Assembly (NCBI GenBank): GCA_965116495.1
Contig: OZ220696.1
Span: 1,056,001 to 1,120,000 of the forward strand
Length of the DNA: 64,000 bases
Reading direction: 5' to 3'
Source: Gammaproteobacteria bacterium
GTDB lineage: Bacteria; Pseudomonadota; Gammaproteobacteria; Eutrophobiales; Eutrophobiaceae
Shown here: piece by piece, positions 19,819 through 63,026 of the stretch
Numbering within the stretch: the first letter of the stretch is position 1
Layout of the letters: the number at the start of each line of letters is the position of its first letter
The notes under the pieces: model-generated
Told to the model about the DNA's origin: nothing
The model's input: the letters and a program-made list of their open reading frames with translations, nothing else
Database searches by the model: none
Position numbers and translations under genes: made by a program

Positions 19819-19966
19819 ATCCGCAGATTACGCAGATTAACGCAGATTAAAATCAATTCAATTTAAACCATTCGTACGTTCGAAAGATTAAATATTCATT
19901 CACATGAAAACTTGAATTACAGAATTAATACAAATTTATCTGCGTTAATCTGCGTAATCTGCGGAT
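19819..19966. repeat. CCGCAGAT-arm inverted-repeat element, copy A
   Basis: atccgcagattacgcagattaacgcagatt, about 90 nt AT-rich interior, atctgcgttaatctgcgtaatctgcggat. Confidence 0.92.
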
Positions 19967-19973
19967 AATTTTT

Positions 19974-21122
19974 TCATTTCAGTCCCTGCCCGATCAGTAT
20001 GAGCCGGATGACCCGCTCTGCCGCATTGGCGATATATTCTCTTGAGTTCGCCAGCGCCTCGTCCAGGGGCATGTCTCTGGCAATAGCCGCTTCCAGGCCG
20101 TTGATCCCGTGCTTGAACACCTCTCCGGCATCGTCCGCCAGTCCTCCGCCGATGGTGATCACGGGGACACCGTATTCACCGGCAAGCCGGGCGATGCCCG
20201 CCGGTGTCTTGCCGAATGCCGTCTGGAAATCCACCCTGCCCTCACCGGTAAACACCAGGTCAGCCGAGCGCAGGTGAGTCTCGATGGAGGTTGCCCTGCT
20301 GATGATTTCAATACCGCTGTCAAGTTCCGCCCCCGCAAATACATGCAGTCCGGCGCCCAGTCCGCCTGCCGCTCCGGCGCCCGGCATTGCATCCATGTCA
20401 ATATCCATTTCCCGCTTAATCACACCCGCCAGATGTTTCAAATTGTCATCCAGCAACTTCACCATGTCCGCATCGGCGCCTTTCTGCGGCGCGAATACGC
20501 AGGCTGCACCGTTTTTCCCGGTCAGGGGGTTGTCAACGTCGCAGGCGACCAGGATCCGGGCTTTATCCAGTTTCGGGTGCCTGTCCTTCAGGTCCACGGA
20601 CTCTATTTTATGCAGCATACCACCGGCGCCGTTCCGGTGGATAACGCTACCGTCCCCGGTGCGAAACACCACCCCCAGGGCCTGTGCCATGCCCACGCCG
20701 GCGTCGTTGGTGGCGGAACCACCAATTCCCAGGATAATTTTCTGCGCGCCCTTGTCAAGGGCGTGGCGAATCAACTCGCCTGTCCCGAACGAGGTCGTCC
20801 TTAACGGGTTCATGGTCTCGCCGCTGACTAGCGTTAACCCGGAAGCCGCCGCCATTTCGATGACCGCAGTGCTGTTATCCGCCAGCATCCCATAGCCGGC
20901 CGTGACGTTTTGACCGGCGGGCCCTGTAACCTTACAACTGAGCAACTCCCCGCCGGCGGCATCAAGCAGCGACTGTACCGTTCCCTCCCCGCCATCAGCC
21001 ATGGGTATCTTTATGCAGTCCGCGCCGGGCAGCACCCTTTCGATACCTGCTTCCATGGCCTCGGCAACCTCCATGGAGGTCAGGCTGCCCTTGAACGAGT
21101 CTGGTGCGAGAATTATCTTCAT
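19974..21122 (-). CDS. Glycerate kinase (GlxK/GarK family)
   Basis: MKIILAPDSFKGSL, PMADGGEGT, GIGGSATNDAG, GAGAAGGLG, TGEG. Confidence 0.95.
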   Translation of the reverse strand: MKIILAPDSFKGSLTSMEVAEAMEAGIERVLPGADCIKIPMADGGEGTVQSLLDAAGGELLSCKVTGPAGQNVTAGYGMLADNSTAVIEMAAASGLTLVSGETMNPLRTTSFGTGELIRHALDKGAQKIILGIGGSATNDAGVGMAQALGVVFRTGDGSVIHRNGAGGMLHKIESVDLKDRHPKLDKARILVACDVDNPLTGKNGAACVFAPQKGADADMVKLLDDNLKHLAGVIKREMDIDMDAMPGAGAAGGLGAGLHVFAGAELDSGIEIISRATSIETHLRSADLVFTGEGRVDFQTAFGKTPAGIARLAGEYGVPVITIGGGLADDAGEVFKHGINGLEAAIARDMPLDEALANSREYIANAAERVIRLILIGQGLK

Positions 21123-21142
21123 ATTGCGATTTATGTATCAGA

Positions 21143-21219
21143 AAAAAGGGGACAGATTTATTTTTTCGGCAATAGCGCTGGTCGGTAAAATATTTGAAAA
21201 ATAAATCTGTCCCCTTTTT
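21143..21219. repeat. AAAGGGGACAGATTTATT REP-like inverted pair
   Basis: 23-bp perfect arms at 21143-21165 and 21197-21219. Confidence 0.88.
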
Positions 21220-21675
21220 CTATCTATACACCTGGTAGGTTACGCGGTCACCAACGGTGATATCCCGTTTTTGTACCTGCCCGGCTTTCAGTTCCAGGAC
21301 GGCTTTGACCCGGCCGTCCGACGGCATCACTTTAGTGGATTCCGGCTGTGCGTTCTCGACGATCTTGACGATGTATCCATCCGTATCGATATAAATTATA
21401 TCAAGCGGGATAAAGGTATTCTTCATCCAGATATTCAACCGTTGCGGTTTTTCGTTCAATAACAACATTCCCTGGTTTGCCGGCAAGCTTGACCGGTACA
21501 TCAGACCGATGCTTTTCAAACGCGGGTTATCGGCAACCTCAACCCGGTAATACAGGTTGTCATATTTCGTATTTATCGTCAGTGAACCTGACTTGAAATG
21601 GGTCTGGCCGATACAGCTCGCGCTGATGAACAGCAGGAATAGAAGGCAACAGTCTCGACGACACTCTATTATCAT
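21220..21675 (-). CDS. DUF192 family protein
   Basis: VEVAD..GLMYR..GML, WMKNTFIPLDIIYID, VLELKAG. Confidence 0.92.
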   Translation of the reverse strand: MIIECRRDCCLLFLLFISASCIGQTHFKSGSLTINTKYDNLYYRVEVADNPRLKSIGLMYRSSLPANQGMLLLNEKPQRLNIWMKNTFIPLDIIYIDTDGYIVKIVENAQPESTKVMPSDGRVKAVLELKAGQVQKRDITVGDRVTYQVYR

Positions 21676-21680
21676 TGATC

Positions 21681-21796
21681 AATTACGAATTACAAATTAC
21701 AAATTACGAATTAGGAATTACGAATTACGAATTACGAATTACGAATTGGGTTTTTAAGATTTTAATTCCTAATTCGTAATTTGTAATTCCTAATTG
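21681..21796. repeat. Inverted heptamer arrays (AATTACG x10, 12-nt spacer, reverse-complement units x4-5)
   Basis: Read directly; overlaps the TAG stop of the dUTPase gene. Confidence 0.95.
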
Positions 21797-22257
21797 ATCT
21801 TCTTATTGTCTTCTTCACTCTTCGTTGCCCTGTTGTATCCGCTGTCCTGCCTGTTCAGGTTGACCGCGTGTTTCTGGCAATAAATATCGTACACTTTTTC
21901 CGGCGTAAGACCCGAGCATATCAGCGCGGAGACAAGAAAATGCAGTATATCGATTAATTCAACCCGGATATTCTGTATGTCGATATCATCCTTGCTCCAC
22001 CACTTCCATAATAACTCTTCATCAAGCTCCAGTATCTCCTCGCGCATCGCCCTGGAATAGTTTGATAACCAGGTATTGGGCAGGTCATTGACCTTGAGGC
22101 CGCCTTCATTGACCTGCGAATAGATGGTATCCATGGTCAGGGGATTCCCTGAAGTATCCTTGAGACCGTTTTTTTTGAAAACGTAATCGTTCAGTTCGGT
22201 CTGCATCCTGAAGATACGTTTGAGCATGTCGATCTCTGCAGATTTTTCAATATCCAT
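21790..22257 (-). CDS. Dimeric all-alpha dUTPase-like protein (dUTPase_2 family)
   Basis: MLKRIFRMQTELN, AMREEILEL..WKWW, ELIDILHFLVS, Y..KH.VN..RQ..GY; start trimmed to ATG 22257. Confidence 0.82.
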   Translation of the reverse strand: MDIEKSAEIDMLKRIFRMQTELNDYVFKKNGLKDTSGNPLTMDTIYSQVNEGGLKVNDLPNTWLSNYSRAMREEILELDEELLWKWWSKDDIDIQNIRVELIDILHFLVSALICSGLTPEKVYDIYCQKHAVNLNRQDSGYNRATKSEEDNKKIN

Positions 22258-22316
22258 CGTTCGCGTCCCTATTTTTGACCGCCGGGAGTAATTCGCCCCC
22301 CCGGGTAACAGGCCGA

Positions 22317-22337
22317 GGACAGATTTCAAATCTGTCC
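22317..22337. repeat. GGACAGATTT REP-like hairpin
   Basis: ggacagattt-c-aaatctgtcc. Confidence 0.65.
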
Positions 22338-22682
22338 CCTTCTCTGCCCGAATTAGCGGGAGCCGTTGAATTGATTTGATTATTATTGCCATTTTCGCTA
22401 TTTTCGTACACACTATACAAGTAGTTTGCATATTTTCTCTGGTCAATTCAGTAATTCCGGTTGGTTTTTCCTGTATTACCTTGCTGAATTTGCAACACGT
22501 TAGGCGTCGGGAAACTCTTGTTTATTCAGAATTTCCCGCGAGGCAGGGATACGCCATCATGTGCTTTCGCAATGTGATTGGACATGTGGGAAAATCGAAA
22601 ACCCGGGTTTTCGATCTTCATGTTCTGAAAATTCCGGGATGGAATTATTCAGGGATATTTTAATTTTTTCACGAGGTGATAT

Positions 22683-22886
22683 ATGGCAACTGGTACAGTT
22701 AAATGGTTTAATGAAACAAAAGGGTATGGATTTATCACGCCCGATGACGGAACGGCCGATGTATTCGTTCATTTTTCCGCTATACAGGCAGATGGATTCA
22801 GAACTCTGAGCGAAGGCCAGACTGTTTCATTTGAGAAAAAGGCAGGAGCAAAAGGCGATCAAGCTGTTAACGTTCAAATGACTTAA
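22683..22886 (+). CDS. Cold-shock protein (CspA family)
   Basis: [24 protein letters not shown]. Confidence 0.97.
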
Positions 22887-22890
22887 CCTG

Positions 22891-22914
22891 ACTGCCTGTT
22901 ATCAGGCAGTTTTT
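22891..22914 (+). terminator. Rho-independent terminator after csp
   Basis: actgcctg-ttat-caggcagt followed by a T-run. Confidence 0.75.
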
Positions 22915-22957
22915 ATTACACTACAACCATCCAGGCTTCTGGATTAGGGATAGAACC

Positions 22958-23224
22958 TTGAAAAGAATGTTTGTTGGAAGTTTGCCTATGGAAACGACCG
23001 AAGCCGCCCTGACCGAACTATTTTCGGAATACGGAAAAGTCAGGGGCATTCAGCTTGCTACGGATGTTTTTTCCGGCAAATGCAAGGGGTTTGGTTTTGT
23101 CGATATGGAAGGACACGAAGCCAGGGCAGCGATTGAAGGACTGAACGGCAAGATGTACCAGGGCAAGTTCCTGCGCGTCAACTTTCAGGAACCACGGGGA
23201 AAGAAAGGTAAAAGGCGCCGCTGA
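22958..23224 (+). CDS. RRM-domain RNA-binding protein
   Basis: MFVGSL (RNP2), KGFGFVDM (RNP1), AIEGLNG. Confidence 0.92.
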   Translation: MKRMFVGSLPMETTEAALTELFSEYGKVRGIQLATDVFSGKCKGFGFVDMEGHEARAAIEGLNGKMYQGKFLRVNFQEPRGKKGKRRR

Positions 23225-23258
23225 CCAATATCGGTTGGTCACTCCCTTTACTTGATCC

Positions 23259-23915
23259 ATGAACATTGAGTTGATCAGTTTTGATCTGTGCCCGTTTGTG
23301 CAACGCTCGGTCATTACCTTGCTGGAAAAGGACATCCCCTTCAAGCGCACCAATATAGACCTGGCCAACAAGCCTGGCTGGTTTTTGCAGATCTCGCCCC
23401 TGGGGAAAGTACCCGTACTGAAAATAGACGGCAACATCCTGTTTGAATCGGCAGTCATCAACGAATACCTGGATGAAGTTACCCCCCCGTCCATGCACCC
23501 GGAAGACCCACTGCAAAAGGCCGTAAACCGGGCCTGGATTGAATTCGGATCGGAATTATCCAACCTGTCATTCAGGATGGTGATTACGGAGGATAAGGAC
23601 ATTGTGGAACAATCCCTGCAGGCCCTGAGGGATAAATTCGAATTTCTGAACAAAAACCTCAACGCCGCCCCTTTCTTTAACGGCGCGGATTTCTCGCTGA
23701 TCGACGCGGCCTATGCGCCTGTCTTTATCCGTATAGAATACCTGCTGAAGCAGGCGATCGCTGATGTGATCCCGCCGGGGTGCAGCCGGGTACTGGCCTG
23801 GAGCAACGCCATCCTGGCGCGGCCGTCAGTCCGCGGCAGCATCATCGACCGCTTCACCGAACTGGCAACGCAAAGATTCAAGAAACGGGGCGGTATCCTG
23901 CTGCAAAACCTGTAA
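23259..23915 (+). CDS. Glutathione S-transferase family protein
   Basis: SFDLCPFVQR, SPLGKVPVL, FESAVINEYLDE, FSLIDAAYAP. Confidence 0.93.
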   Translation: MNIELISFDLCPFVQRSVITLLEKDIPFKRTNIDLANKPGWFLQISPLGKVPVLKIDGNILFESAVINEYLDEVTPPSMHPEDPLQKAVNRAWIEFGSELSNLSFRMVITEDKDIVEQSLQALRDKFEFLNKNLNAAPFFNGADFSLIDAAYAPVFIRIEYLLKQAIADVIPPGCSRVLAWSNAILARPSVRGSIIDRFTELATQRFKKRGGILLQNL

Positions 23916-23932
23916 ACCTGCAATTGATATTA

Positions 23933-24092
23933 TTTATCCGCAGATGACGCAGATAAACGCAGATTAAAAGACAATTCTTTATATGTGGATGGTGACCAGG
24001 TCGGATTTAATCAATAAAGTCTGAATTTGTCCGGGGCCTGTCAAGTTTTAATATCTTTTATCTGCGTTTATCTGCGTGAATCTGCGGATAAA
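23933..24092. repeat. CCGCAGAT-arm inverted-repeat element, copy B
   Basis: tttatccgcagatgacgcagataaacgcagatt ... atctgcgtttatctgcgtgaatctgcggataaa. Confidence 0.92.
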
Positions 24093-24104
24093 TCAAGCGG
24101 TATT

Positions 24105-25334
24105 TTATGTATAGGCGTGCTTTTGCAGCACCAGGCGATAGCATTGCAGGCGGTTATGCAGGAAGCACTCAGCCGACCCCCACAAGTACAGCCGGAAGCG
24201 CCGGTAATCCGCCTCGCCGAACTTTTTGATGATGAATTCCCGGTTGGCATCGAAGCGTTTGGCCCAGTGGTCAAAAGTCAGGTAATAGCTGTACCGATCA
24301 TCCCATACTCCTTTCAAATCAAACGGCTTTGCGGCCAGGGATTTCAGAAAGTCGTGGAGCACGAAGAAGGAATGGTTGCCGGGATATATGTGTTGCGTAA
24401 TAAAGGATGATATCTCATATTTCCGGGGTATGGCGCTGGCGTCGAGAAATACATAACCCCCCGGCTTGAGCAACCGGTCAAAACACTTCAGGACCTCGGT
24501 ATAGTTGGGCAAGTGCTCCATCACGCCCAGTATGGCGATGGCATCGAACTGTTTTTTGGTTTTGTATTCAAGGACGTCCATCAACCTGGTGGTGATAGGC
24601 AACTTCTGCACAGACGTCAGTTGCTGCATGAATTTAAGCGACTGCTCAGCAATGGTCAGGCCGGTCACCTTGATGCCTTTACGCGCCGCGAATTCCGCAA
24701 ACGAACCCCAACCGACTCCGACGTCCAGTACTTCACTGCCGGGGGTCAGCTTGCATCGTTCCAGGATAAAGTCCATTTTCCGGCGTATCGCTGCCGAGAG
24801 CGGTTCGTCAGGCGACTCGAATATGCCCTGGGTGTAACAGCGAAACTCCTCATCCAGGAACGACAGGTAAAATGAATGGTCCCGTTCGTAATGGTGGCTG
24901 ATTGCCGATTTGTTGACCGCGACCTGGCCCAGCAATACCGGCGCTATAAACCGCCAGAGCCACCTGAACAGGTGCCGGTCCTGACAATAATTGCGCAATT
25001 CATACATTTTGATGATATCGCCCTCTACATCGAACCAACCGTCGATATAGGCGTTCGCGATGACTCCTTCATCAAACGATACAATGGCGCGCAATCCCCT
25101 GGGGTCAGTCATCCTGAGCTTGAAACGCGGCGAACCCGTGCCTATCCTGTGTTCACTTCCGTCCGTGAGCACCGCGTCGAAACTGACCGGGCTTTTCCTG
25201 AACCGGTGGGAAATAAATCCCAGTAGCCGGGCTTCCCTGCGCTGCAGCGTTTTAATTTTTTTGCTTTCGACCGGACTCGCAGCTTCCGGAACACCTTGTT
25301 GCTCGTCGGCACGATCATTTAGAATAGATGCCAT
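24105..25334 (-). CDS. Cyclopropane-fatty-acyl-phospholipid synthase-like SAM methyltransferase
   Basis: AISHHY, FLD..CYT, VLDVGVGWG, GVMEH, HIYPG, RFRLYL..S. Confidence 0.85.
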   Translation of the reverse strand: MASILNDRADEQQGVPEAASPVESKKIKTLQRREARLLGFISHRFRKSPVSFDAVLTDGSEHRIGTGSPRFKLRMTDPRGLRAIVSFDEGVIANAYIDGWFDVEGDIIKMYELRNYCQDRHLFRWLWRFIAPVLLGQVAVNKSAISHHYERDHSFYLSFLDEEFRCYTQGIFESPDEPLSAAIRRKMDFILERCKLTPGSEVLDVGVGWGSFAEFAARKGIKVTGLTIAEQSLKFMQQLTSVQKLPITTRLMDVLEYKTKKQFDAIAILGVMEHLPNYTEVLKCFDRLLKPGGYVFLDASAIPRKYEISSFITQHIYPGNHSFFVLHDFLKSLAAKPFDLKGVWDDRYSYYLTFDHWAKRFDANREFIIKKFGEADYRRFRLYLWGSAECFLHNRLQCYRLVLQKHAYT

Positions 25335-25441
25335 GATTCTTCATACCTCTGTTGCCCTCTGGTAAATTATCACTTATCCGGCAAACACGCAAAGGAATAA
25401 GACAACCGGATTAACCGGGATTATTGCGTTATCCTTCCTTC

Positions 25442-26173: not shown

Positions 26174-26215
26174 CAGGCACCTGCCCGACTATTTTCCAAA
26201 CCGGCTGACAATCGA

Positions 26216-26881: not shown

Positions 26882-26887
26882 CGGCAC

Positions 26888-30637: not shown

Positions 30638-32430
30638 ATGAGCGCAGCCTACCAGTTCATTCAGCATGAATACGATATTGTCGTGGTAGGCGCCGGTGGC
30701 GCCGGGTTGCGCGCCACCTTCGGCATGGCCGAGAAAGAGCTGAAAACGGCTTGCATCACCAAGGTCTTTCCCACCCGCAGCCACACCGTTGCGGCCCAGG
30801 GCGGCATGAGCGCGGCCCTGGGCACATGGGTGAAGACGACTGGCGCTGGCACATGTACGATACCGTCAAGGGGTCGGACTGGCTGGGTGACCAGGATGCC
30901 ATTGAATATATGTGCAAGGAGGCTGCTGCTGCCGTGATCGAACTGGAACATTACGGCGTCCCCTTCTCGCGTACCACGGACGGCAAGATTTACCAGCGTC
31001 CTTTCGGCGGCATGACGACCAACTTCGGTGAAGGCACGGCGCAGCGTACCTGCGCCGCCGCCGACCGCACCGGTCACGCCATCCTGCATACCCTGTACCA
31101 GCAGTCCCTGAAGCATAACGCCGAGTTTTTCGTCGAATATTTTGCCATCGACCTGATCATGGACGATGAAGGCGTGTGTCGGGGTGTCCTGGCCTGGGAC
31201 CTGGAGAAGGGCGACCTGCACTGCTTTCGCGCCCACACCGTGGTCCTGGCTACGGGGGGGTATGGACGCGCCTATTTCTCCTGTACCTCCGCCCATACCT
31301 GCACCGGTGACGGCAATGCCATGATACTGCGCGCCGGCCTGCCTTTGCAGGACATGGAATTCGTCCAATTCCATCCTACCGGCATTTACGGCGCCGGGGT
31401 GCTGATTACCGAAGGAGTGCGCGGCGAGGGTGGCTACCTGACCAATTCGGAGGGTGAAAGATTCATGGAGCGTTACGCCCCCAATGCCAAAGACCTGGCC
31501 TCCCGGGACGTGGTCAGCCGCTCCATGACCATGGAAATCCGGGAGGGGCGCGGGATTGGCCCGGAACGGGACCACCTCCACCTGCACCTGGAACACCTGG
31601 GACCGGATGTGATCAACGAACGCCTGCCCGGGATCGCGGAGTCGGCCCACATTTTCGCCGGAGTGGACGTTTCCAGGGCACCCATTCCCGTCCTGCCTAC
31701 GGTGCATTACAACATGGGTGGGATCCCGACCAACTACCACGGACAGATGGTCACGTTGAAGGACGGCAATCCCGACAGTATCGCCCCCGGCCTCATGGCC
31801 ATCGGGGAAGCGGCCTGCGTATCGGTCCACGGCGCCAATCGTCTCGGCTCAAACAGCCTGCTGGACCTCATCGTGTTCGGCCGCGCCGCGGCCCTGTGTG
31901 CCGCCCGCGAAGTCAAACCCGGCGCTCCCCACAAACCCCTGGGCGCCGCGACGACAGAGCAGTCCCTGGCGCGCTTCGACCGCCTTCGTTATGCCGGCGG
32001 CGGTATGCGTACTGCCGAGATCAGGAACAACATGCAGCGAACCATGCAGACCAACGCCGCGGTCTTTCGCAGCGGTGAGATCCTGGCGGAAGGTGTCGAA
32101 AAAATGGATGCTATTTACCATTCGTTTAACAATGTCAGCACGGCTGATCGTTCCCTGGTCTGGAATACCGACCTGGTCGAGACCCTGGAACTGGAAAACC
32201 TGTTACAGTGCGCGCAGGTAAGCATCCGCTCCGCCGCAAACCGCAGGGAGAGCCGCGGCGCCCATGCCCGGGAGGATTACCCGGAGCGGGATGATGATAA
32301 TTGGATGAAACATACCTTATCGTGGCTGGACCCCGATTCGGGCAGGGTGGATTTCGACTACCGGCCGGTACACCTGTATACCCTGACGGATGAGGTGGAC
32401 GCAATCCCACCGAAAAAGCGGGTATATTAA
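30638..32430 (+). CDS. sdhA: Succinate dehydrogenase flavoprotein, 1-nt frameshift near 30824
   Basis: [19 protein letters not shown]; adding one A restores [13 protein letters not shown]; [17 protein letters not shown]. Confidence 0.95.
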
Positions 32431-32442
32431 TCCGCAGGGATA

Positions 32443-32524
32443 TATCCGCAGATTACCCAGATATACGCAGATGAAAAAAATGAATCAAAAAATAATCTGC
32501 GTTAATCTGCACCATCTGCGGATA
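32443..32524. repeat. CCGCAGAT-arm inverted-repeat element, copy C (short interior)
   Basis: tatccgcagattacccagatatacgcagat, about 20 nt interior, aatctgcgttaatctgcaccatctgcggata. Confidence 0.9.
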
Positions 32525-33367: not shown

Positions 33368-33745
33368 AGCCCGCATTTCTCACCAGGCGGTGCGAAGATC
33401 GCTCAGGATTTTAGATGTGCGCCCTCCATGGCGCACACCCTGCGGGTGTCCTGTGGACATCCAAATCTGCTCCTGGCAGATTTGTCCCGCCAGCGGGTGC
33501 CTGCGACCGAAAGCATAGCCGGCCCTGATGCGCCCCATCCTTGGGGCGCCCCCTGCGGGCGCTCTGCGAGCGTCCAAATCTGCTCCAGGCAGATTTGTCT
33601 GGTTGAGGGACAAATCGGCAGGACAGCCGATTTGCACGGCGATAGCCGCCCGAAGGGTTGCGTCCAGGGATGGGCGCAATGAACACGTGCCCGTTGGCGG
33701 GAAAAAGACAAGCGAGGGCGCATCGCCTGGTGAGAAATGCGGGCT
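33368..33745. mobile_element. MITE-like element (378 bp) with 27-bp TIRs carrying three 72-bp-type hairpin modules
   Basis: agcccgcatttctcaccaggcggtgcg / cgcatcgcctggtgagaaatgcgggct (1 mismatch); no transposase. Confidence 0.85.
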
Positions 33746-36504: not shown

Positions 36505-36532
36505 CTGGATTATGGTATGGATGGCTGTTTGA

Positions 36533-36672
36533 CTGGATTCCGGCTTCCGCCGGAATGACGGATTGACTTCCACCGGAATGACGGATTGACTTCCACCGGA
36601 ATGACGGATTGGCTTCCGTCGGAGTGACGGATTGGCTTAACGGCGGAATGACGGGTTGGCTTAACGGCGGAA
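36533..36672. repeat. REP-derived 23-bp tandem array (about 5.5 units) overlapping the ffh 3' end
   Basis: g(g/a)cttcc(g/a)ccggaatgacggatt units from 36542. Confidence 0.88.
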
Positions 36673-38039: not shown

Positions 38040-38188
38040 ATCCGCAGATGGCGCGGATTTACGCAGATTATATGTGAATTTTACCGGTAACAATCGAAAT
38101 CCGGCAGGCAATCTGACATCCGTTCACAATTCGAGTAAACTCGTTTTATTAAAACCGTTACGCAATATCATCTGCGCTAATCTGCGGA
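38040..38188. repeat. CCGCAGAT-arm inverted-repeat element, copy D
   Basis: atccgcagatggcgcggatttacgcagatt ... atctgcgctaatctgcgga. Confidence 0.85.
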
Positions 38189-42374: not shown

Positions 42375-43061
42375 ATGGATAAAACGAAAATCACATTGCT
42401 GACAATTGTCATCGTATTGGTGGTGCTGTTTTTTGTTTTCGACCTGGGCCAGTATTTCAACCTGGAATACCTGAAGGAGAAGCAGGCCGTCATGGATGCC
42501 TATTATGAGCGGGAACCATTAACAACAGCCGTCTCCTTCTTTTTCCTGTATGTCATCATTACCGGCCTGTCCCTGCCGGGGGCAGCCATCCTTACCTTGG
42601 CCGCCGGCGCCATTTTCGGTGTGCTCTGGGGAACCATAGTCGTGTCCTTTGCTTCCACCATAGGGGCAACGCTCGCATTCCTGGTCTCACGCTACCTGTT
42701 CCGGGAAGCCATACAAGGACGTTTTGCCGACAAGTTAACCGCCATCAACAGGGGGATTGACGAGGAAGGCGCATTTTACCTGTTCACCCTGCGCCTGGTG
42801 CCCATATTCCCGTTTTTCATCATCAACCTGGTGATGGGCCTGACTACCATCAAGGCGTTGACCTTCTTTCTCGTCAGCCAGGTCGGGATGCTGGCCGGGA
42901 CTGTCGTTTACGTGAACGCCGGTACCCAGATTGCGAAAATTGAACAACTCAAGGATATCGCATCACCGGAGTTGATATTGTCTTTTGTGCTGCTGGGCAT
43001 CTTCCCGCTGTTGGCGAAAAAAACAGTCGATTACCTGAAAAAACGTAAAATCCGCAGATGA
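42375..43061 (+). CDS. TVP38/TMEM64 (VTT/DedA) family membrane protein
   Basis: SLPGA.ILTL.AGAIFG, LRLVPIFPFFIINL, SQVGML.GT. Confidence 0.92.
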   Translation: MDKTKITLLTIVIVLVVLFFVFDLGQYFNLEYLKEKQAVMDAYYEREPLTTAVSFFFLYVIITGLSLPGAAILTLAAGAIFGVLWGTIVVSFASTIGATLAFLVSRYLFREAIQGRFADKLTAINRGIDEEGAFYLFTLRLVPIFPFFIINLVMGLTTIKALTFFLVSQVGMLAGTVVYVNAGTQIAKIEQLKDIASPELILSFVLLGIFPLLAKKTVDYLKKRKIRR

Positions 43062-43228
43062 CGCACTCCTGCCTAAAGCATGCAGAGGCATGGATTAACG
43101 CAGATTTTTTTGGAATGATTTCGAATTGTATTGGCCATTCCTGCACCTCTTCGTCATTCCCGCGCAGGCGGGAATCCAGTAACCAAACAGTCGCCTTTCA
43201 GGCGACACTTTATCACCAAGATCTGCGC
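43050..43228. repeat. Degenerate CCGCAGAT-arm element, copy E, with a 27-nt insert and a nested REP at 43153-43180
   Basis: atccgcagatgacgca[27 nt]gattaacgcagatt; residual right arm atctgcg; cgtcattcccgcgcaggcgggaatccagt inside. Confidence 0.75.
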
Positions 43229-44583: not shown

Positions 44584-44726
44584 AACATATACAGGTTAGA
44601 ATCCCTGACGGCCAATCAAATACCCCCTGTTCTACCGTTCCAGTTGTCCCTTATCGCAACTGCCGGTGCGCATTTCTTTCCGATCCATTGCCCTTGTATG
44701 CTTTATGCAGGATGCGTCATCTGGGG

Positions 44727-44763
44727 ATTAAGGAACCTCTGACATAATCAGAGGTTCCTTAAT
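44727..44763. repeat. 16-bp perfect palindrome (TAAGGAACCTCTGA arms) overlapping a stop codon
   Basis: attaaggaacctctga-cataa-tcagaggttccttaat; related half-site at 51107-51124. Confidence 0.8.
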
Positions 44764-45914: not shown

Positions 45915-47531
45915 CAGTCTGTCGGACTTGGGCGCTGCGATTATCTTTGCGGACCACTTTTCAGGTCTTTTTGTCGCGGCAAGGCGCACGTGCATGTTGC
46001 CTGAACCTATACATGTACATTATGGGGATGTACAGACCTCACCAGGCGCCTGTCCTGACCGGGTAAACACCCACTGCCCCCTGCATCAGGCCAGCTGCAT
46101 GTTATGCAGGCGTTTACAGTTGTAGGCCAGGGCCAGTAACTGCCACTCACCGGTCACCTTCTCATGGCCGCGCAGGAGAAACTGCCGGAACCCCAGGGCC
46201 TGCTTCATGATACCGAACACCGGCTCCACGGTCTGCTGCCGCAACCGGTAGCTGGCCCGGTTGTCCGCCTGTGATAACTTCTCTTGCATCGCCACCAGCC
46301 AGGGCGCTTTCGCCGGCTTGGGCTTGGCCGCCTGCGCCGGGTCCGGCAACGGGCGGAAGTCATGCCGCCGGCGCCGGTCCTCCGTCCCCACCGCCACCAG
46401 CACGTCTATCTCCCGACCGGTCAGCGCAGCCACTTCTGTCTCCGTCGCATAGCCGTTGTCCGCCAACACCTGGGCAGGGGTCCCCAACGCCGCCGGCACC
46501 GAGTCAATGTCAGCGACCAATTCGTTGCGGTCGCTGGCGCATTGGCTGACCCGCGTCCCCAGCACCAACTGGCTGCCGTCCGCATCCACCACCGCCTGCG
46601 CATTGTACGCCTGCCGGTACTCACTGCGTTTGTTCTTGCGCATCAGGGAACTGTCCGCATCCGTCAGGTTCACCTGGGTGTCCTCCGCCGGGGTGTCTTC
46701 CGGCGGCTTGATAGGGTGCCCCTTGGCCCGGCCCCGACGCTTCTCACGCGCCGCCACCTTGCGCTCGTACTCGGCCTGGTCCGCCTGCGCTTGCGCCTTG
46801 GCCTGGCGCTCCAGACGTGCGCAGGCCGCATCCAGTTGCGTCGCCAGCGCCTCCCGCCGCGCCAACGCCTTCGGCAACTGCTGCGGGTCCGCCGCGTCCT
46901 GGCTGTCCGCACGCTCCGCTTCGGCCAGCAAATCCTTGACCTCACCCCGCAACTGCTCGCGTAATTCCACCGCCCGGTCATAGCGGATACTGCGCCGCTT
47001 GCTCGCAGCCGCCTTCACCTTCGTCCCGTCCACACTCACCCGGCCCACCGTCAACAACTTCAATTCCTTCGCCAGCAATAACACCTCCACAAAACCCGCC
47101 TGTACCGCCTCAAGGTTCTCCCGCCGGAACTTGCAAATCGTGTCATGGTCCGGGTGCGTGTTCGCCGTCACGTAACGCACCCCGATATCCCGGTACGTCG
47201 CTCGCTCAATCCGGCGCGAGGAAAAAATACCGTTCGCATAACAATAAATCAGCAACGCCAGCATGATACGCGGGTGATACTGTGCCGACCCCGTGCCCCG
47301 GGTGTTCACCACAAACTGACTCAAAGGCACCCGTTCCACCGCTGCCACGACAAAATGCGCCAGGTCATCCTCGGGTAGCCACTCGCGTAAATCCGGTGGT
47401 AACAGGTAGGGTTGGTTACGGTCACTTTGCACAAAGTTTTCCATCGAAGCAGCCTCTATCGAACAGCGTGTGGTATCATCAAATCGTGTCGTCTATTATA
47501 CCTCTATCCCAGCCCTAAGTCCGACAGACTG
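45915..47531 (-). mobile_element. IS1182-family insertion sequence flanked by CTAG
   Basis: IRs cagtctgtcggactt / aagtccgacagactg; CTAG at 45911-45914 and 47532-47535. Confidence 0.9.
46086..47444 (-). CDS. IS1182-family DDE transposase
   Basis: LLPPDLREWLP, FSSRRIE, PDHDTI, VDGTK, YNAQ, ADNGY, Y..R...VEPVFG..K. Confidence 0.93.
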   Translation of the reverse strand: MENFVQSDRNQPYLLPPDLREWLPEDDLAHFVVAAVERVPLSQFVVNTRGTGSAQYHPRIMLALLIYCYANGIFSSRRIERATYRDIGVRYVTANTHPDHDTICKFRRENLEAVQAGFVEVLLLAKELKLLTVGRVSVDGTKVKAAASKRRSIRYDRAVELREQLRGEVKDLLAEAERADSQDAADPQQLPKALARREALATQLDAACARLERQAKAQAQADQAEYERKVAAREKRRGRAKGHPIKPPEDTPAEDTQVNLTDADSSLMRKNKRSEYRQAYNAQAVVDADGSQLVLGTRVSQCASDRNELVADIDSVPAALGTPAQVLADNGYATETEVAALTGREIDVLVAVGTEDRRRRHDFRPLPDPAQAAKPKPAKAPWLVAMQEKLSQADNRASYRLRQQTVEPVFGIMKQALGFRQFLLRGHEKVTGEWQLLALAYNCKRLHNMQLA

Positions 47532-47632: not shown

Positions 47633-48391
47633 ATGAGAAAATTATTTTACCTGGCAGTGCTGCTCTGGTTCCCCGGAGCGCATGCACAGTCCATGAACGT
47701 CGCGGTCGCATCCAACCTGACCCATACGATTAGCGAAATCAGCAAGGTTTTTTTTCTGGATGAGGGAGAAAAGGTCAACCTGACTTTTGGTTCATCCGGG
47801 AATTTTGCCAGGCAGATCGTACAGGGTGCGCCTTACAAGGTCTTTATTTCCGCCGGCAAACAGTACGTGGACTTCATCCGGGACAAGGGCCGGGAGACAA
47901 TCGGCTTCAAGGCGCTGGTTCATGGCCGCCTCAGCTTGTATATCCCGGAAACATCGAAACTGGAAAAGCAGGCGACACTGGCCGATGCGCTGAAGACGAT
48001 TCAATACGGCGACTTCCGCAGACTGGCTGTCGCCAACCCGGAACATGCACCCTATGGCCAGGCTGCCAGGGAAGCGCTGGTCAATGCAGGTGTATGGGTT
48101 GTTAACCACAAAAAGCTGCTGTTTGGTGAAAATGCAGCGCAGGCAATGCAATTCTGCCTGTCCGGAAGCGTAGACATGTGTATCATTCCCAGTTCTTTTC
48201 TGGTGCTGGAACAATTCTCAGGCAAGGGAGACAATTTCACGATCCCGCTGAAGTGGCACCCTCCCATCACTCAATACGCTGTTTTGCTCGATAACAGCGA
48301 TGAACAGGGCGTGCGCTATTTTAACTACCTGTCGTCCGCGTCCAGTGAAGCCATTTTCAGGAAACACGGCTACATCTTGATTGAGAATTAA
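47633..48391 (+). CDS. modA: Molybdate ABC transporter substrate-binding protein
   Basis: AVASNL, FGSSG, ANPEHAPYG, GEN; start trimmed to ATG 47633. Confidence 0.93.
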   Translation: MRKLFYLAVLLWFPGAHAQSMNVAVASNLTHTISEISKVFFLDEGEKVNLTFGSSGNFARQIVQGAPYKVFISAGKQYVDFIRDKGRETIGFKALVHGRLSLYIPETSKLEKQATLADALKTIQYGDFRRLAVANPEHAPYGQAAREALVNAGVWVVNHKKLLFGENAAQAMQFCLSGSVDMCIIPSSFLVLEQFSGKGDNFTIPLKWHPPITQYAVLLDNSDEQGVRYFNYLSSASSEAIFRKHGYILIEN

Positions 48392-48548
48392 GAATTAGGA
48401 ATTACGAATTACGAATTGGGAATTGGGAATGACTGTACATGGCGGGGTTCTGTTTATCGAGATGGCCGTACCAAATCAGCACCGCTCAGAACTTGTGTTA
48501 GAGTAACGTGTCCCCAATTCGTAATTCCTAATTCGTAATTCGTAATTC
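48386..48548. repeat. Inverted heptamer arrays flanking an ~80-nt unique interior between modA and modB
   Basis: aatt(a/g)(a/c/g)g x6 at 48386-48427; reverse-complement units x5 at 48513-48548; modA TAA lies in the first unit. Confidence 0.93.
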
Positions 48549-48556
48549 AAATTTAT

Positions 48557-50323: not shown

Positions 50324-51025
50324 TCATTTCTCCTCTTGCTCTTCCATTCTAGCCTTTGAAAGTGCAGACGCCAACAGTCCTGCCGGAATAGCGACTATCC
50401 CTAAGCCAATCATTAAAATGAGAAAAGTAAATATTTTTCCTCCCGCTGTTATGGGATAAACATCACCATAACCTACTGTTGTTAAAGTGGTCACTGCCCA
50501 CCATAAGCTATGGATAATACTTTTGAACGCTTCCGGCTGAGCCTCGTTTTCGCAATAATAAATGCCCACAGCTGATAAATATAAGAGCATCACAGTTACC
50601 ACGCCGAAAATAGCAATCTCTTCTTTTGCAATTACAAACGCCCTGGTAAATCTCCGAATAGCCTTGCCGGATCGGAAAAATTTCATAAGCCGAATAATCC
50701 GTAGCCATCGGAGATCAATGCTGAATGACAGGAAAAAGAAAAGATAAAAAGGGATGATCGCTATCAAATCGATGAGTCCATAAATACTCAGTACATAACC
50801 GAGTTTCCTGTCAGCCACATAAAATCTAAGAAAATATTCAACGGTAAATATGATTACTATGACTACTTCTGTAATATGAAGTAATTTTCTGGCGCTGGCT
50901 CCAAGATCAGGTAACGTTTCTATGGAAAACGTGATAACAGAGAACAAGATCAGTGATTGCATAACCAGATCGAATATACGACCCGCTTGAGTATCGTTTC
51001 TCTCAACTATCGACTTTATATTCAT
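50324..51025 (-). CDS. Ion transporter, voltage-gated K+ channel-like
   Basis: WWAVTTLTTVGYGD filter, Arg-rich S4-like segment; AT-rich DNA. Confidence 0.92.
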   Translation of the reverse strand: MNIKSIVERNDTQAGRIFDLVMQSLILFSVITFSIETLPDLGASARKLLHITEVVIVIIFTVEYFLRFYVADRKLGYVLSIYGLIDLIAIIPFYLFFFLSFSIDLRWLRIIRLMKFFRSGKAIRRFTRAFVIAKEEIAIFGVVTVMLLYLSAVGIYYCENEAQPEAFKSIIHSLWWAVTTLTTVGYGDVYPITAGGKIFTFLILMIGLGIVAIPAGLLASALSKARMEEQEEK

Positions 51026-52752: not shown

Positions 52753-52918
52753 ATCTGCAAATTACGCAGATTATCGCAGATAAAAATACAAATTTATTAT
52801 TGAAGTTGTCTGGTTCAGATATGGTTAATTTAAACCTGATTTTATCCGGAAGCTGAAAAACAGTTAATCAGTAAATTTTTTTATAATTTAATCTGCGATA
52901 ATCTGCCTAATCTGCGGA
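52753..52918. repeat. CCGCAGAT-arm inverted-repeat element, copy F
   Basis: atctgcaaattacgcagattatcgcagat ... atctgcgataatctgcctaatctgcgga. Confidence 0.88.
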
Positions 52919-52924
52919 CAAATA

Positions 52925-57495: not shown

Positions 57496-57502
57496 TTGAC
57501 CC

Positions 57503-59176: not shown

Positions 59177-60807
59177 TGAGCTGGACAGGTCGAACCGGGT
59201 TAGTGGCCAGCCTAGTTTCGACATTATTGCTGGCTGCCTCATGCGGCTTCAATTACGAAACGAATGTAGAGAGCGGTGCGCGTGAGGGGATATTACATAT
59301 CGGTAATGGCGACGAACCCCGGGAGCTTGATCCCCATGTCGTAACCGGCCGCATCGAGTCCGACCTGTGCCTGGCGCTGCTGGAAGGCCTGGTCGGCTGG
59401 CATCCCGAAGGAAAGCGCTTGATCCCCGCCGCCGCCAAATCCTGGGAGCAAAGCGAAGACGCCAGAACATACCGGTTCCACCTGCGTGAAGACGCAAAAT
59501 GGTCCAACGGCGACCCGGTAACGGCCACGGACTTTGTCTATTCATGGCGCCGGGCGCTGCTGCCTGCCCTGGGCAACAACTATGCTTATATGCTGTATTA
59601 CATCAGGAACGCGGAAAGGTTCCACCAGGGGGAAATAACGGATTTCTCCCGGGTGGGCATCACGGCGCCCGATGACCTGACCCTGGTGGTCGAACTTGAG
59701 AACCCGACGCCATTTTTCCTGCAGTTACTGACACACATGAGCTATTATCCCGTCCACCAGGCGACTGTCGAAGCGTTCGGGGCCGCGGATGAACGCGGCA
59801 CGCGCTGGACCCGTCCGGGGAACCACGTGGGGAACGGCCCGTTCAAGCTGAAGGAGTGGGTGCTGAACCGCAGCATCGTCGTGGAGAAGAACGAATATTA
59901 CTGGGATGCCGGTGCGGTGAAATTGAACCAGATCGTCTTCTACCCAGTCCAGAATGCGACCACGGAAGAACGCATGTTCCGCGCCGGCCAGTTGCACATC
60001 ACCACTAATATGCCGGTTGACAAGATAGCGCACTACCGGCAGGAAAGACCCGGCACCCTGAAAATCTCACCTTATTTATCGACCTACTACTATCTCTTCA
60101 ATACTACCGTTGCGCCGCTCGACCGGGTAAAGGTCAGGCAGGCCCTGACCATGTCCATCGACCGGCAACAGGTAGTAGATAAGATCACCAAGGCGGGAGA
60201 GATCCCGGCCTTCAGCTACACCCCGCCTGATACCAACGGCTACACGGCAACCGCGCGGGTACGCTATGACCTGGAACGCGCCAAGGCCCTGCTCGCGGAA
60301 GCGGGCTATCCTGGCGGGACGGGTTTTCCCGGCCTGGAGTTAATGTACAACACCTCCGAGGGGCATCGCCGGATAGCCATAGCCATCCAGCAGATGTGGA
60401 AGACCAACCTCAACATCGACGTTACGCTGACGAACCAGGACTGGAAGGTATACCTGGATAAACGCGATGAGAAAGACTACCAGGTAGCGCGGGCCGGCTG
60501 GATTGGTGATTACCTGGATCCCAATACCTTTCTCGATATGTACACTACAAACAGCGGCAATAACGACACGGGCTGGTCGAACCGGCGCTACGACGCACTG
60601 ATAGCACTGGCCGGCGCAACCACGGACCAGGAACGCCGCTTCACCCTTTTCCAGGATGCCGAATCCATCCTGATGACCGAGTTGCCTATCATGCCCATCT
60701 ACACGTACGTCAGCAAATCACTGGTCTCACCGGACGTGCGCGGCTGGTATCCGAATATCCTGGATATCCACCCGTTTAAATATATTTCCCTGGTGTCAGG
60801 AAAATGA
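59176..60807 (+). CDS. oppA: Oligopeptide ABC substrate-binding lipoprotein
   Basis: Lipobox LAASC, KWSNGDPVTA.DFVYSWRR, NGPF.L, RAGWIGDY.DP. Confidence 0.88.
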   Translation: MSWTGRTGLVASLVSTLLLAASCGFNYETNVESGAREGILHIGNGDEPRELDPHVVTGRIESDLCLALLEGLVGWHPEGKRLIPAAAKSWEQSEDARTYRFHLREDAKWSNGDPVTATDFVYSWRRALLPALGNNYAYMLYYIRNAERFHQGEITDFSRVGITAPDDLTLVVELENPTPFFLQLLTHMSYYPVHQATVEAFGAADERGTRWTRPGNHVGNGPFKLKEWVLNRSIVVEKNEYYWDAGAVKLNQIVFYPVQNATTEERMFRAGQLHITTNMPVDKIAHYRQERPGTLKISPYLSTYYYLFNTTVAPLDRVKVRQALTMSIDRQQVVDKITKAGEIPAFSYTPPDTNGYTATARVRYDLERAKALLAEAGYPGGTGFPGLELMYNTSEGHRRIAIAIQQMWKTNLNIDVTLTNQDWKVYLDKRDEKDYQVARAGWIGDYLDPNTFLDMYTTNSGNNDTGWSNRRYDALIALAGATTDQERRFTLFQDAESILMTELPIMPIYTYVSKSLVSPDVRGWYPNILDIHPFKYISLVSGK

Positions 60808-61031
60808 CGAATTAGGAATTACGAATTACGAATTACGAATTAGGAATTACGAATTACGAATTACGAATTACGAATTACGAATTACGAATTAGGAATTAGG
60901 AATTAGGAATTAGGAATTACGAATTAGGAATTAGGAATTAGGAATTAGGAATTAGGAATTAGGAATCATTAAGTTGGCAAAATACTTCACTAACCTAGAA
61001 TTCGTAATTCCTAATTCCTAATTCGTAATTC
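60803..61031. repeat. Inverted heptamer arrays (about 23 x AATTA(C/G)G, ~30-nt spacer, about 5 reverse units) between oppA and oppB
   Basis: Read directly; the oppA TGA lies in the degenerate first unit aaTGAcg. Confidence 0.95.
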
Positions 61032-61044
61032 TCTAGATAATAAT

Positions 61045-61977
61045 ATGTTCAAATTCATACTCAAACGCTTGTTGCAAGCGATCCCGGTACTGCTGGTTGT
61101 CAGCGTCATCACTTTCCTGCTGATCCATGCGGCGCCCGGCGGGCCGTTTGCCGAGGAGAAGGCGGTCCCACCGGAAGTGCTCAAGCACCTGAACGAACGT
61201 TACAAGCTGGACCAGCCTATTTACGTTCAATTTTATGACTACATCAGCCATGCCATTAAGGGAGAGCTGGGACCCTCCTTCAAATATCCCGGCAGGTCGG
61301 TAAACGAGATCATCGCCGCCGGTTTCCCTGTCACGCTGGAACTGGGTTGTTACGCCCTGCTGTTCGCCCTGCTCATCGGTATCGGCAGCGGGGTGTGCGC
61401 GTCGTTGAACCCGAATACCTGGCAGGACTACGTCCCCATGACGTTTGCCACCATCGGTATCTGCCTGCCCGCATACGTACTGGGCCCGTTGCTGGTGCTG
61501 GTCTTCGGCATCTGGCTGGAGTGGTTGCCCGTGGCCGGCTGGGGGCTGATCCCGGGGGACAAGATTCTACCCTCCGTTACCCTGGGTTCGGTGTATGCCG
61601 CCTACATCGCCCGGCTGAGCCGGGGCGGGATGCTGGAAACCCTGTCCCGGGATTTTATCCGCACCGCACGGGCCAAGGGCATGCCCGAGGCGGTGATCAT
61701 ATTCCGTCATGCCATGCGGGTCGGCCTGTTGCCGGTAGTGTCCTTCCTTGGACCGGCGCTGGCGGGTCTGCTCAGCGGTTCCTTCGTGGTTGAAACCATT
61801 TTCCAGGTGCCGGGCCTGGGCCGCTACTTCGTACAGGGCGCATTCAACCGGGATTACACCCTGATCCTGGGCACCACCCTGTTATTCGCTTCCCTGATCA
61901 TCGTCTTCAACCTGATCTCCGACGTGATGCTGGCATGGCTGGATCCCAGGGTAAGGCAGGAGACCGTCCATGGGTGA
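61045..61977 (+). CDS. oppB: Oligopeptide ABC permease
   Basis: APGGPF, GPSFKY, FIRTARAKG, GSFVVETIF.VPGLG, NRDY. Confidence 0.92.
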   Translation: MFKFILKRLLQAIPVLLVVSVITFLLIHAAPGGPFAEEKAVPPEVLKHLNERYKLDQPIYVQFYDYISHAIKGELGPSFKYPGRSVNEIIAAGFPVTLELGCYALLFALLIGIGSGVCASLNPNTWQDYVPMTFATIGICLPAYVLGPLLVLVFGIWLEWLPVAGWGLIPGDKILPSVTLGSVYAAYIARLSRGGMLETLSRDFIRTARAKGMPEAVIIFRHAMRVGLLPVVSFLGPALAGLLSGSFVVETIFQVPGLGRYFVQGAFNRDYTLILGTTLLFASLIIVFNLISDVMLAWLDPRVRQETVHG

Positions 61978-62857
61978 GCAGCAAGGGTTAATCCCGGAAA
62001 GCACCCGGAATATGGGGATCAGTACCTCACCACGCCAGGACGCCTGGCGCAGGCTGAAAAAGAACAAGGCGGCCATGTTTGGACTGGTGGTGCTGGGGGC
62101 GCTGATAGCCCTGTCTCTCCTGGCCCCCTGGATTACTCCCTATTCCTATTCTGCACAAAACCTGGAATTAGGCCCGAGCTCCCCTTCCGCACAGCACTGG
62201 CTGGGCAGCGACCTGTTCGGTCGCGACCTGTTGACGAGAATAATCTATGGCAGCCGCATCTCGCTCGCGGTGGGTTTCGTTGCCACTGCCGTGGCGTTGC
62301 TCATCGGCGTGACCTGGGGCGCCGTGGCCGGTTACCTGGGGGGACGCGTCGATGCCTGGATGATGCGTACCGTGGACGTACTGTATGCCCTGCCCTTCAC
62401 CATTTTCATCATCCTGCTGATGGTGGTGTTCGGCAGCAACATCATCCTGCTGTTCCTGGCCATCGGCGCCGTTGAGTGGCTGACCATGGCACGCATCGTG
62501 CGCGGCCAGGTGTTACACGTCAAGCAGAAGGATTTCGTTGAGGCAGCCGTCAGCCTGGGTCTGTCGCGTTTCCAGATCATCAGAAAGCACGTGATCCCGA
62601 ATATCATGGGAACGGTGATAGTGTACGCCACCCTCACCGTACCCAATGTCATCCTGCTGGAATCTTTCCTCAGCTTCCTGGGCCTGGGTGTTCAGCCCCC
62701 GCAAAGCTCCTGGGGCCTGCTTATCTCATACGGGGTTGAGACCATGGAGGAATACCCCTGGCTGCTGATCTTCCCCGCGGCAGTACTGTCACTGACCCTG
62801 TTCTCCCTCAACTTTCTCGGCGACGGCCTGCGCGACGCCCTGAGTGAGAGGTTATAA
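61970..62857 (+). CDS. oppC: Oligopeptide ABC permease
   Basis: HWLG.D.FGRDL, ARIVRGQ, ESFLSFLGLG, GDGLRDAL. Confidence 0.92.
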   Translation: MGEQQGLIPESTRNMGISTSPRQDAWRRLKKNKAAMFGLVVLGALIALSLLAPWITPYSYSAQNLELGPSSPSAQHWLGSDLFGRDLLTRIIYGSRISLAVGFVATAVALLIGVTWGAVAGYLGGRVDAWMMRTVDVLYALPFTIFIILLMVVFGSNIILLFLAIGAVEWLTMARIVRGQVLHVKQKDFVEAAVSLGLSRFQIIRKHVIPNIMGTVIVYATLTVPNVILLESFLSFLGLGVQPPQSSWGLLISYGVETMEEYPWLLIFPAAVLSLTLFSLNFLGDGLRDALSERL

Positions 62858-62873
62858 TCAACAGAAAAAATAA

Positions 62874-63026
62874 ATCCGCAGATGACGCAGATTACCGCAG
62901 ATAAAAATATAAAAGATCAGGAGACTTACAAAATTCTTGGGGCGGCAATGGCTGTACATAGAGAACTGGGACATGGTTTTCTTGAGACTTGTTTTTAATC
63001 TGCGTTAATCTGCGTCATCTGCGGAT
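62874..63026. mobile_element. CCGCAGAT-arm inverted-repeat element, copy G, containing a GxxExxY gene remnant
   Basis: atccgcagatgacgcagattaccgcagat ... atctgcgttaatctgcgtcatctgcggat. Confidence 0.85.
62882..63008 (+). pseudogene. Internally deleted GxxExxY-family gene
   Basis: 62882-62998 translates MTQITADKNIKDQETYKILGAAMAVHRELGHGFLETCF*; a shifted frame at the junction reads RLVFNLR*, resembling the family C-terminus. Confidence 0.8.

Follow-up and report, generated by a model that had tools for sequence, protein, structure and literature searches.

Seven inverted-arm repeats in a gammaproteobacterial genome as probable gene-less members of a GxxExxY gene cassette family

The repeats in this report lie in a window of 64,000 nucleotides (nt) from a Gammaproteobacteria bacterium (family Eutrophobiaceae; assembly GCA_965116495.1, contig OZ220696.1, positions 1,056,001 to 1,120,000). 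Seven short cassettes are dispersed over this window, each with arms that face each other around an interior. A preliminary description had listed all seven, and every one was recovered at its place, far above chance. Sequence comparison indicates that they belong, as gene-less forms, to a family in which a complete member consists of an arm, a gene for a GxxExxY protein, and an inverted arm. In window coordinates, the copies are as follows.

19819..19966, no strand: copy A; arm 19819-19847, 90-nt interior 19848-19937, arm 19938-19966
23936..24089, minus strand: copy B; arm 23936-23964, 95-nt interior 23965-24059, arm 24060-24089; convergent junction
32444..32523, no strand: copy C; arms 32444-32472 and 32495-32523 with a 22-nt stub between them; sdhA-sdhB junction
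38040..38188, minus strand: copy D; arm 38040-38068, 101-nt interior 38069-38169, shortened right arm 38170-38188
43050..43228, no strand: copy E, broken; left arm 43050-43105, right-arm residue 43221-43228 (8 nt)
52753..52919, minus strand: copy F; arm 52753-52781, 109-nt interior 52782-52890, arm 52891-52919
62874..63026, plus strand: copy G; arm 62874-62902, 95-nt interior 62903-62997, arm 62998-63026; oppC-fabI junction

Copy A occupies the whole gap between the genes for glycerate kinase and valine-pyruvate transaminase, both on the minus strand. Copies D and F sit at divergent junctions, the former between ffh and a cytochrome c assembly gene and the latter within the oligopeptide ABC cluster. 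Additional terminal motifs lie outside two copies, a partial one at the sdhA stop beside copy C (32429-32438) and a 10-mer beside copy G (63032-63041). The left arm of copy F begins ATCTGCAA, and this deviation, like the residual right arm of copy E, is as first described. The left arm of copy E is interrupted by a 32-nt small-hairpin insert (43066-43097), and a nested CGTC-tagged hairpin resembling a repetitive extragenic palindrome (REP) lies farther in (~43151-43185). Since this left arm supplies the TGA of the upstream open reading frame (42375-43061), copy E is not wholly intergenic, and the original statement that all copies are intergenic fails for this one.

The arm consensus is ATCCGCAGAT-N-ACGCAGAT-NNN-CGCAGAT, 29 bp in length; in the full arm, the CGCAGAT units begin at positions 4, 13, and 23. 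The arm is a tandem array whose sole palindrome is an imperfect one of 10 nt at the tip, with no tagged REP palindrome. The genome (4.34 Mb, a single contig, 54.7% GC) contains 40 left-arm and 37 right-arm clusters at one mismatch or less, compared to no arm matches in 1 Mb of order-4 Markov sequence. Strict pairs within 1.5 kb are almost all left-to-right (31, versus 1 right-to-left, 0 left-left, and 1 right-right). A hidden Markov model of the arm gave 39 paired cassettes genome-wide, plus solo arms, and the 38 delimited interiors span 22 to 183 nt (median, 90.5 nt; 67% AT). These cassettes are thus short, non-coding, multi-copy units with terminal inverted repeats. Of 23 genomes from the genus, 20 contain the arm, with as many as 126 occurrences; a reversed control gave 0 matches.

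In congeners, the same 29-bp arms surround a complete GxxExxY gene (TIGR04256/PF13366; TIGR04256 E value of 1.8e-41). PF13366 matches were found in 11 of 41 genomes, and arms of this type bound intact or frameshifted GxxExxY genes in G001, G005, G018, and G011 (numbers with G denote genomes, G000 being the present one); in these cassettes the ATG lies within the left arm and the stop within the right arm. At the copy G junction, the gap in G001 measures 504 nt and contains the full gene; it is 375 nt in G016, 220 nt in this genome, and 45 nt, nearly empty, in G022. The interior of copy G, the sole PF13366 match in its genome, consists of the first 82 nt fused to the last 13 nt of a 367-nt GxxExxY interior. 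The deletions at this site carry short junction homology, and since their end points in G016 and in this genome differ on both sides, they arose separately. The family of the seven repeats very probably derives from a GxxExxY cassette, in line with the first proposal that they are non-autonomous members of such an element.

The association between arm and protein extends beyond the genus. Other GxxExxY clades of the same genus have other arms, and one genus contains three gene clades with three arm types. Strong inverted arms (score of at least 30) were found at 31 of 48 homologue loci, the near-full-length subset of 62, compared to 1 of 44 controls. On a tree of 38 proteins from which arm-encoded ends had been removed, the arm type changes 9 times, compared to 17.1 times when shuffled, and none of 200 shuffles was as low. 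A 22-member branch (94/94 support; both arms called in 19) is characterised by the CGCAGAT type, and its members, by record title, come from Gammaproteobacteria, Planctomycetota, Verrucomicrobiota, Bacteroidota, and Spirochaetota. The search patterns were derived from one clade, so the homologue sample is biased towards it. On viral contigs, the arm occurs at 26 loci, 8 of them as short pairs, and a GxxExxY gene lies within 600 nt of the arm at none of the 26. PMC3424549 lists the function of PF13366 as unknown and describes multiple transfers across prokaryotes and viruses. We found no description of a GxxExxY cassette in a literature search that left out subscription papers and supplements. 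Together with the flipped and exchanged interiors described below, these features suggest an undescribed selfish DNA element.

The interiors had been described as having no obvious similarity to each other, but four of them (copies G, F, B, and D) are alignable to one GxxExxY gene over differing segments: the 5' end in G, the 3' end, reversed, in F and B, and a middle segment in D. Homology was scored by an anchored split alignment permitting long deletions, with z scores taken against shuffles. The copy F interior is a decayed version of the last ~91 nt of a minus-strand gene (z of 11.8; 60/91 nt aligned); an ungapped end-to-end comparison gives only 31/91 because the ends are offset by one base. 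Its translation, LLINCFSASG*NQ...RQLQ, corresponds to QLINYLKASGLNR...RQLQ in the gene. Copy B retains the decayed 3' end of a minus-strand gene (z of 5.3), reading ...LLIKSDLVTIHI*RIVF on the minus strand where the gene has LLINFGARQLQYKRLVF, and it shares an interior cluster with copy F. Copy D includes a decayed mid-gene segment (LPDFDCY versus LPDFICY; z of 5.0); this is the weakest of the four links, its two orthologues scoring -0.1 and 1.0. By these alignments, the origin of four of the seven interiors appears to be explained. Gene homology at a z of at least 4 was detected in 21 of 144 interiors overall and in 6 of 34 in this genome, and none had a z of -3 or below; nhmmer gene profiles were less sensitive, finding 3 of 37 own-genome interiors.

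Other interiors have spread as short forms. Family 0, with a 90-nt interior, comprises 26 members spread over 17 sites and 8 genomes, and its between-site identity is 46 to 90%; neither it nor the copy A family showed a link to 23 gene copies (z of -0.4 and 0.2). Its spread over sites argues that the short forms themselves were copied. Many other interiors belong to families or hold nested repeats, 40 of 147 are singletons, and multi-copy interior families were also seen outside the window. One could suppose instead that each miniature is a separate full-length insertion that decayed in place, the miniatures not copying themselves; the two independent deletions at copy G, with their short junction homology, and the retention of different gene segments by different copies would fit. 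This explanation is already strained, however, by family 0 and other families that share one short structure at many unrelated sites, and by 109-nt interiors that retain the same last 91 nt of the gene at two sites, and we regard it as very improbable.

Nor are the interiors ancestral intergenic DNA, a candidate that was rejected: orthologous gaps that have no arms are mostly -2 to ~65 nt long and lack the interiors. The copy A gap is 2 to 5 nt in G020, G008, and G014; the copy B gap is 11 to 22 nt in five congeners; the copy C gap is 16 to 28 nt in G014, G003, G019, G020, and G006; and at copy E the flanking genes overlap (gap of -2) in six congeners. The arm-less allele at copy D is a conserved gap of 52 to 53 nt in six congeners, five of which have a ATCCGCAG-like motif, and the filled alleles lack ~30 nt of this conserved gap.

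Foreign cargo found no support. An arm pair that captured foreign DNA would form a dispersed memory of the integron type or of the type of clustered regularly interspaced short palindromic repeats, and AT-rich interiors of similar length, the many singletons, and a protein resembling Cas4 could be taken that way. The traceable interiors, however, have their source in the gene of the cassette itself or in nested host repeats, and interiors are inherited, drifting at about the rate of variable arm positions. The copy A interior, the only one searched against phages, had 0 matches among 50,697 phage records and is confined to its own site among the 23 genomes. It has no detectable homology to the GxxExxY gene either (z of -0.4). 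Among exact-arm pairs 200 to 500 nt apart in these genomes no other cargo gene was found; the 9 loci were GxxExxY-derived or held nested repeats where inspected, so that the only gene found between these arms in the genus was GxxExxY. Moreover, the pairs are inverted and dispersed and form no direct-repeat array. Spacer capture is the least credible of the alternatives, and the interiors are very probably not captured foreign spacers.

What is new here is that sites are reused across species while their interiors are inverted or replaced. The 160 cassettes compared, drawn from 13 genomes, group into 76 sites, and 40 sites have more than one cassette. In this sample, the window's syntenic region is overrepresented, as are perfect arms from G016, G022, G005, and G003 (loci taken from matches: 15/26 in G005, 15/21 in G003, and 15/19 in G022). 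Among 173 cross-genome orthologous pairs, 46 have the same interior family, 79 have different ones, and 48 are too short, giving replacement in 79 of 125 classifiable pairs; 8 orthologous pairs are inverted. The copy A site has different interiors in G016, G018, G002, and G003 and the inverted interior, 86% identical, in G001, and other, longer interiors occupy the copy C site in G008, G021, G002, and G005. Inversion was also found at sites 5, 13, and 42, a full-length gene being among the inverted interiors, and, as judged by eye, for copy F in G015. Drift alone is insufficient, since family 0 is alignable at 84% flank identity and neighbours at 86 to 93% have different interiors. The original view of the interiors as decayed or swapped is thus supported on both counts, with gene fragments in four of the seven window copies and swaps and inversions at fixed sites.

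At sites 2, 13, 25, 30, and 31, different interiors stand behind an identical outer junction. Exact junctions are shared at 19 of 120 ends in different-family pairs, compared to 44 of 80 in same-family pairs; with so few coinciding ends, exchange between standing arms and fresh insertion both probably occur. Over 24 pairs, divergence is 2.1% at fixed arm positions, 19.8% at variable arm positions, and 16.3% in interiors, so that fixed arm bases change ~8-fold more slowly than interiors and variable arm bases are not slowed. At position 11, the left arm covaries with the right (n=65 with one cassette taken per site; p=0.008), and the trinucleotide variable position shows a weak excess of left-right identity (24/55 versus 16.2 expected). 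Extra terminal 10-mers, sometimes in tandem, lie outside 61 of 320 ends, compared to 4 of 319 controls, with a modal distance of 15 nt. Target duplications of at least 6 nt were seen at 6 of 121 cassettes (5.0%), compared to 4.3% of shuffled pairs, which bears out the first reading of no duplication. Contigs from other DNA sequencing runs cover copy A with no differing letters, and no inversion or excision was readable in them; an opposite-strand joint at copy A in the unitigs arises because a perfect inverted repeat gives such a joint.

An AT-rich potassium-channel-like gene (window 50324-51025, minus strand) occupies a junction that holds a full GxxExxY cassette in G001 and G005 and a miniature in G015, G016, and G022. 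At junctions E and F of G018, inserts resembling insertion sequences (IS) lie inside cassette interiors (gaps of ~1.6 and ~1.5 kb).

The GxxExxY protein has 132 residues, with invariant E35, D75, E85-x-K87, and Q99-xxx-Y103. No solved structure was matched by sequence. The predicted model is confident (predicted local distance difference test score, 91), and its best match to a solved fold by Foldseek is Cas4 SSO0001 (E value of 1e-4; template modeling score of 0.60). A restriction-fold protein was also matched, as were, at lower rank, lambda exonuclease and MGME1, and no transposase fold was among the matches. The model thus places the protein in the PD-(D/E)XK fold, with the predicted catalytic motifs and a Cas4/RecB-like branch assignment. 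Enzymes like Cas4 and lambda exonuclease cut or resect DNA and do not join strands, and movement would therefore need host repair.

We tentatively attribute both the spread and the exchange of interiors to a Cas4-like nuclease that would cut at an arm, with host recombination then repairing the break by copying a second cassette. The protein of the same clade may bind the three CGCAGAT units, which are spaced 9 and 10 nt apart, and would nick or resect at the arm. Repair would use the 29-bp arms, or a ATCCGCAG-like motif at a new site, as homology; it would copy a cassette into short operon gaps and overwrite or flip a resident interior, and in doing so would equalise the two arms, trim some flank, and leave no duplication. 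Copies might persist because near-zero gaps have been filled and the arm offers stop codons, with the gene visiting a lineage only at intervals. Such a cut-and-copy route would explain the reuse of sites, the swaps and inversions, the covariation of the arms, the loss of flank, and the absence of a duplication. A broader proposal, which we hold to be doubtful, is a transposase-free mobile DNA in which a 130-residue Cas4-like nuclease, one clade per arm sequence, would seed operon junctions across many phyla with persistent landing pads, its own arm arrays, and rewrite the DNA between the pads by recombinational cassette exchange; the pads would outlive the gene and be reused whenever a matching gene passes.

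Several observations weigh against the putative nuclease-driven route. Chief among them, arms are equally numerous and perfect in genomes that have no intact gene of the same clade: among single-contig genomes, the share of perfect arms is 69% in this genome, 76% in G022, 69% in G020, and 53% in G003, comparable to 68% in G001, 78% in G005, and 65% in G018, which have the intact gene. With arm number and perfection independent of a present gene, the model needs repeated short gene visits or host selection. Twenty-eight of 34 own-genome interiors, including copy A and family 0, lack significant homology to the gene. Since only 19 of 120 junctions are exact, many of the replacements may reflect separate insertions or edits of the flank, and the orthologous pairs are non-independent. 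Several arm-less gaps (the copy A site in G020 and G008, and many other junctions) have no ATCCGCAG-like motif. Conserved arms are favoured because cassettes were found through their arms, and simple co-travel would also yield co-variation of arm and protein. Ordinary IS elements invert between terminal repeats with no special enzyme (PMC3004938).

The persistence of intact arms where the gene is lacking could also mean that the host keeps the hairpins. The cassettes would then be old GxxExxY insertions whose arms serve as an RNA stem, a processing or stability site within operons and a donor of stop codons, and RecA-type conversion would swap and flip interiors with no part for the nuclease. 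The arms can pair, copy A folding at -58 kcal/mol (z of -11), and they covary, as pairing would favour. By our own rough gene calls, 29 of the 38 copies in the genome are co-directional, 6 convergent, and 3 divergent (divergent junctions making up 14% of all gaps, in raw counts); most fill their intergenic gap to within ~25 nt, and ~10 extend into a gene end. Most interiors lack structure, 4 of 34 having a folding z below -2 (median, -0.3). Pairing alone would allow compensated drift, whereas 25 fixed bases are shared by arms from several phyla that accompany one protein clade; many congeners have no hairpin at all at the same junctions, and copies D and F lie between divergent genes. We therefore rate host-kept hairpins as unlikely, below the cut-and-copy route.

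Still less probable is an ordinary miniature inverted-repeat transposable element (MITE), or a REP doublet forming hairpins (REPIN), moved in trans by another transposase, either Y1/REP-associated tyrosine transposase (RAYT) or DDE, with GxxExxY as a passenger and shared sites as hot spots. The size of ~150 bp, inverted ends, many copies, and interior families agree with it, as do the use of the same gaps by other hairpin families and the presence of an open Y1_Tnp gene and IS1182 copies in the genome. REPINs likewise show conserved arms, variable spacers, and replacement at fixed positions (PMC3337134 and 10.1101/2024.10.14.618302). There is no target duplication, however, the open Y1 gene is flanked by its own, different repeats, and the arms have neither a GTAG or CGTC tag nor a self-contained REP stem-loop. 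The arm type tracks the GxxExxY clade across phyla, and a start and a stop inside the arms are unexpected for a passenger gene. The preliminary description had allowed for an already known REP or MITE; apart from a tRNA fragment at 1-76, no Rfam family reached its gathering score in the window, and duplication and transposase fold are both lacking.

By comparison with known systems, the cassettes work most like REPINs, of which they are not members, and arise like a MITE yet fail the duplication and transposase tests. REPINs combine conserved arms with variable spacers (10.1101/2021.07.10.451892; PMC3337134), and their changes at conserved positions are reported to follow those of the resident RAYT (10.1101/2024.10.14.618302). 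Both kinds of element are extragenic and ~100 to 150 bp long, with inverted arms around a variable spacer, long persistence in a lineage, and replacement at fixed orthologous positions. In contrast, cassette arms are tandem CGCAGAT arrays and not REP stem-loops, and the predicted protein fold is PD-(D/E)XK and Cas4-like and not HUH/Y1. The GxxExxY gene lies inside its element, at varying loci and across phyla, whereas the RAYT is single-copy and immobile; SBW25 REPIN spacers form hairpins, unlike the mostly unstructured interiors, some of them gene remnants, found here. No cognate RAYT with the same flanking repeats was found at the two main Y1_Tnp loci inspected, the uninspected third being a 30-codon fragment.

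MITEs derive from IS through internal deletion of a longer element that bears a gene between terminal inverted repeats, and in this the cassettes resemble them. The cassettes differ in lacking both a target duplication and a DDE, Y, or S transposase, in heavy reuse of the same sites, and in interiors far more diverse than those of a typical MITE family. The interior inversion between terminal repeats also has its parallel in IS elements (PMC3004938). GTAG/CGTC-tagged REP dimers (PMC3733652) share spacers of 20 to 100 bp, mostly co-directional or convergent junctions, closeness to gene ends, and an occasional role as stop-codon donors; they have an 8- to 9-bp stem with a 4- to 5-nt loop, which the cassettes lack along with the tag. 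The CGTC-type repeat is a separate family in this genome, the one nested inside copy E.

Homing endonuclease elements spread by cutting and recombinational repair, with no target duplication, as proposed here. The cassettes differ in having no intron or intein, and their putative recognition sites are the element's own ends, so that occupied sites would be targets rather than immune.

The genus offers a natural series at the same junctions, with full, partly deleted, miniature, inverted, replaced, and empty alleles, and together with a 29-bp candidate substrate per protein clade this makes the function of the family directly testable. The cassettes present the REPIN puzzle a second time, in a RAYT-free case, with some spacers traceable to a source gene. 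Should exchange between the arms be driven by the nuclease, the cassettes would constitute a very compact site-directed rewriting system.

TIGR02436 four-helix-bundle cassettes and rRNA intervening sequences (PMC4990558) also have a small gene between pairable inverted arms; protein and arm sequence are unrelated to those of the GxxExxY cassettes, which are not in rRNA. An intact TIGR02436 gene lies between inverted GAATTAG/GAATTAC heptamer arrays in this genome (G000:C1:1532816-1533139, minus strand), and gene-less arrays of this kind occupy window positions 10430-10544, 21654-21810, 48345-48555, and 60803-61040. At ~60803, the left flank of the window's heptamer array is followed in G016 by a CGCAGAT cassette.

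Further repeats share the intergenic gaps. The ~30-nt hairpin found in copy E (43066-43097) was also located at G000:C1 positions ~1381284, 3403549, and 4276468; at least 3 copies have it at one and the same position within the arm, and a fourth has a nested variant. It occurs inside CGTC-type repeats in G018 as well and may be a tiny mobile element. Near 44680-44730 there is a decayed right arm containing an insert of this kind. At ~12530-12645 there is a gene-less cassette with arms of the CACAGAG type, that of another GxxExxY clade, and an internal CGTC-like hairpin; the same junction in G016 is occupied by a CGCAGAT cassette. The CGTC-tagged REP-like family has ~80 copies genome-wide, including window positions 12561, 17687, 36526-36664, 39041, 43154, 47538, and 55754, and at least 3 further hairpin families occupy the same gaps in congeners.

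An IS1182-family transposase gene lies at 46086-47444 (minus strand), with at least 5 near-identical copies elsewhere in the genome. Direct repeats of 155 bp, 96 to 100% identical, follow the tRNA at the window start (55-632). Between sdhB and the next gene (33414-33599) are two 73-nt copies of another repeat, and a related unit is nested in a cassette at G000:C1:1835022.

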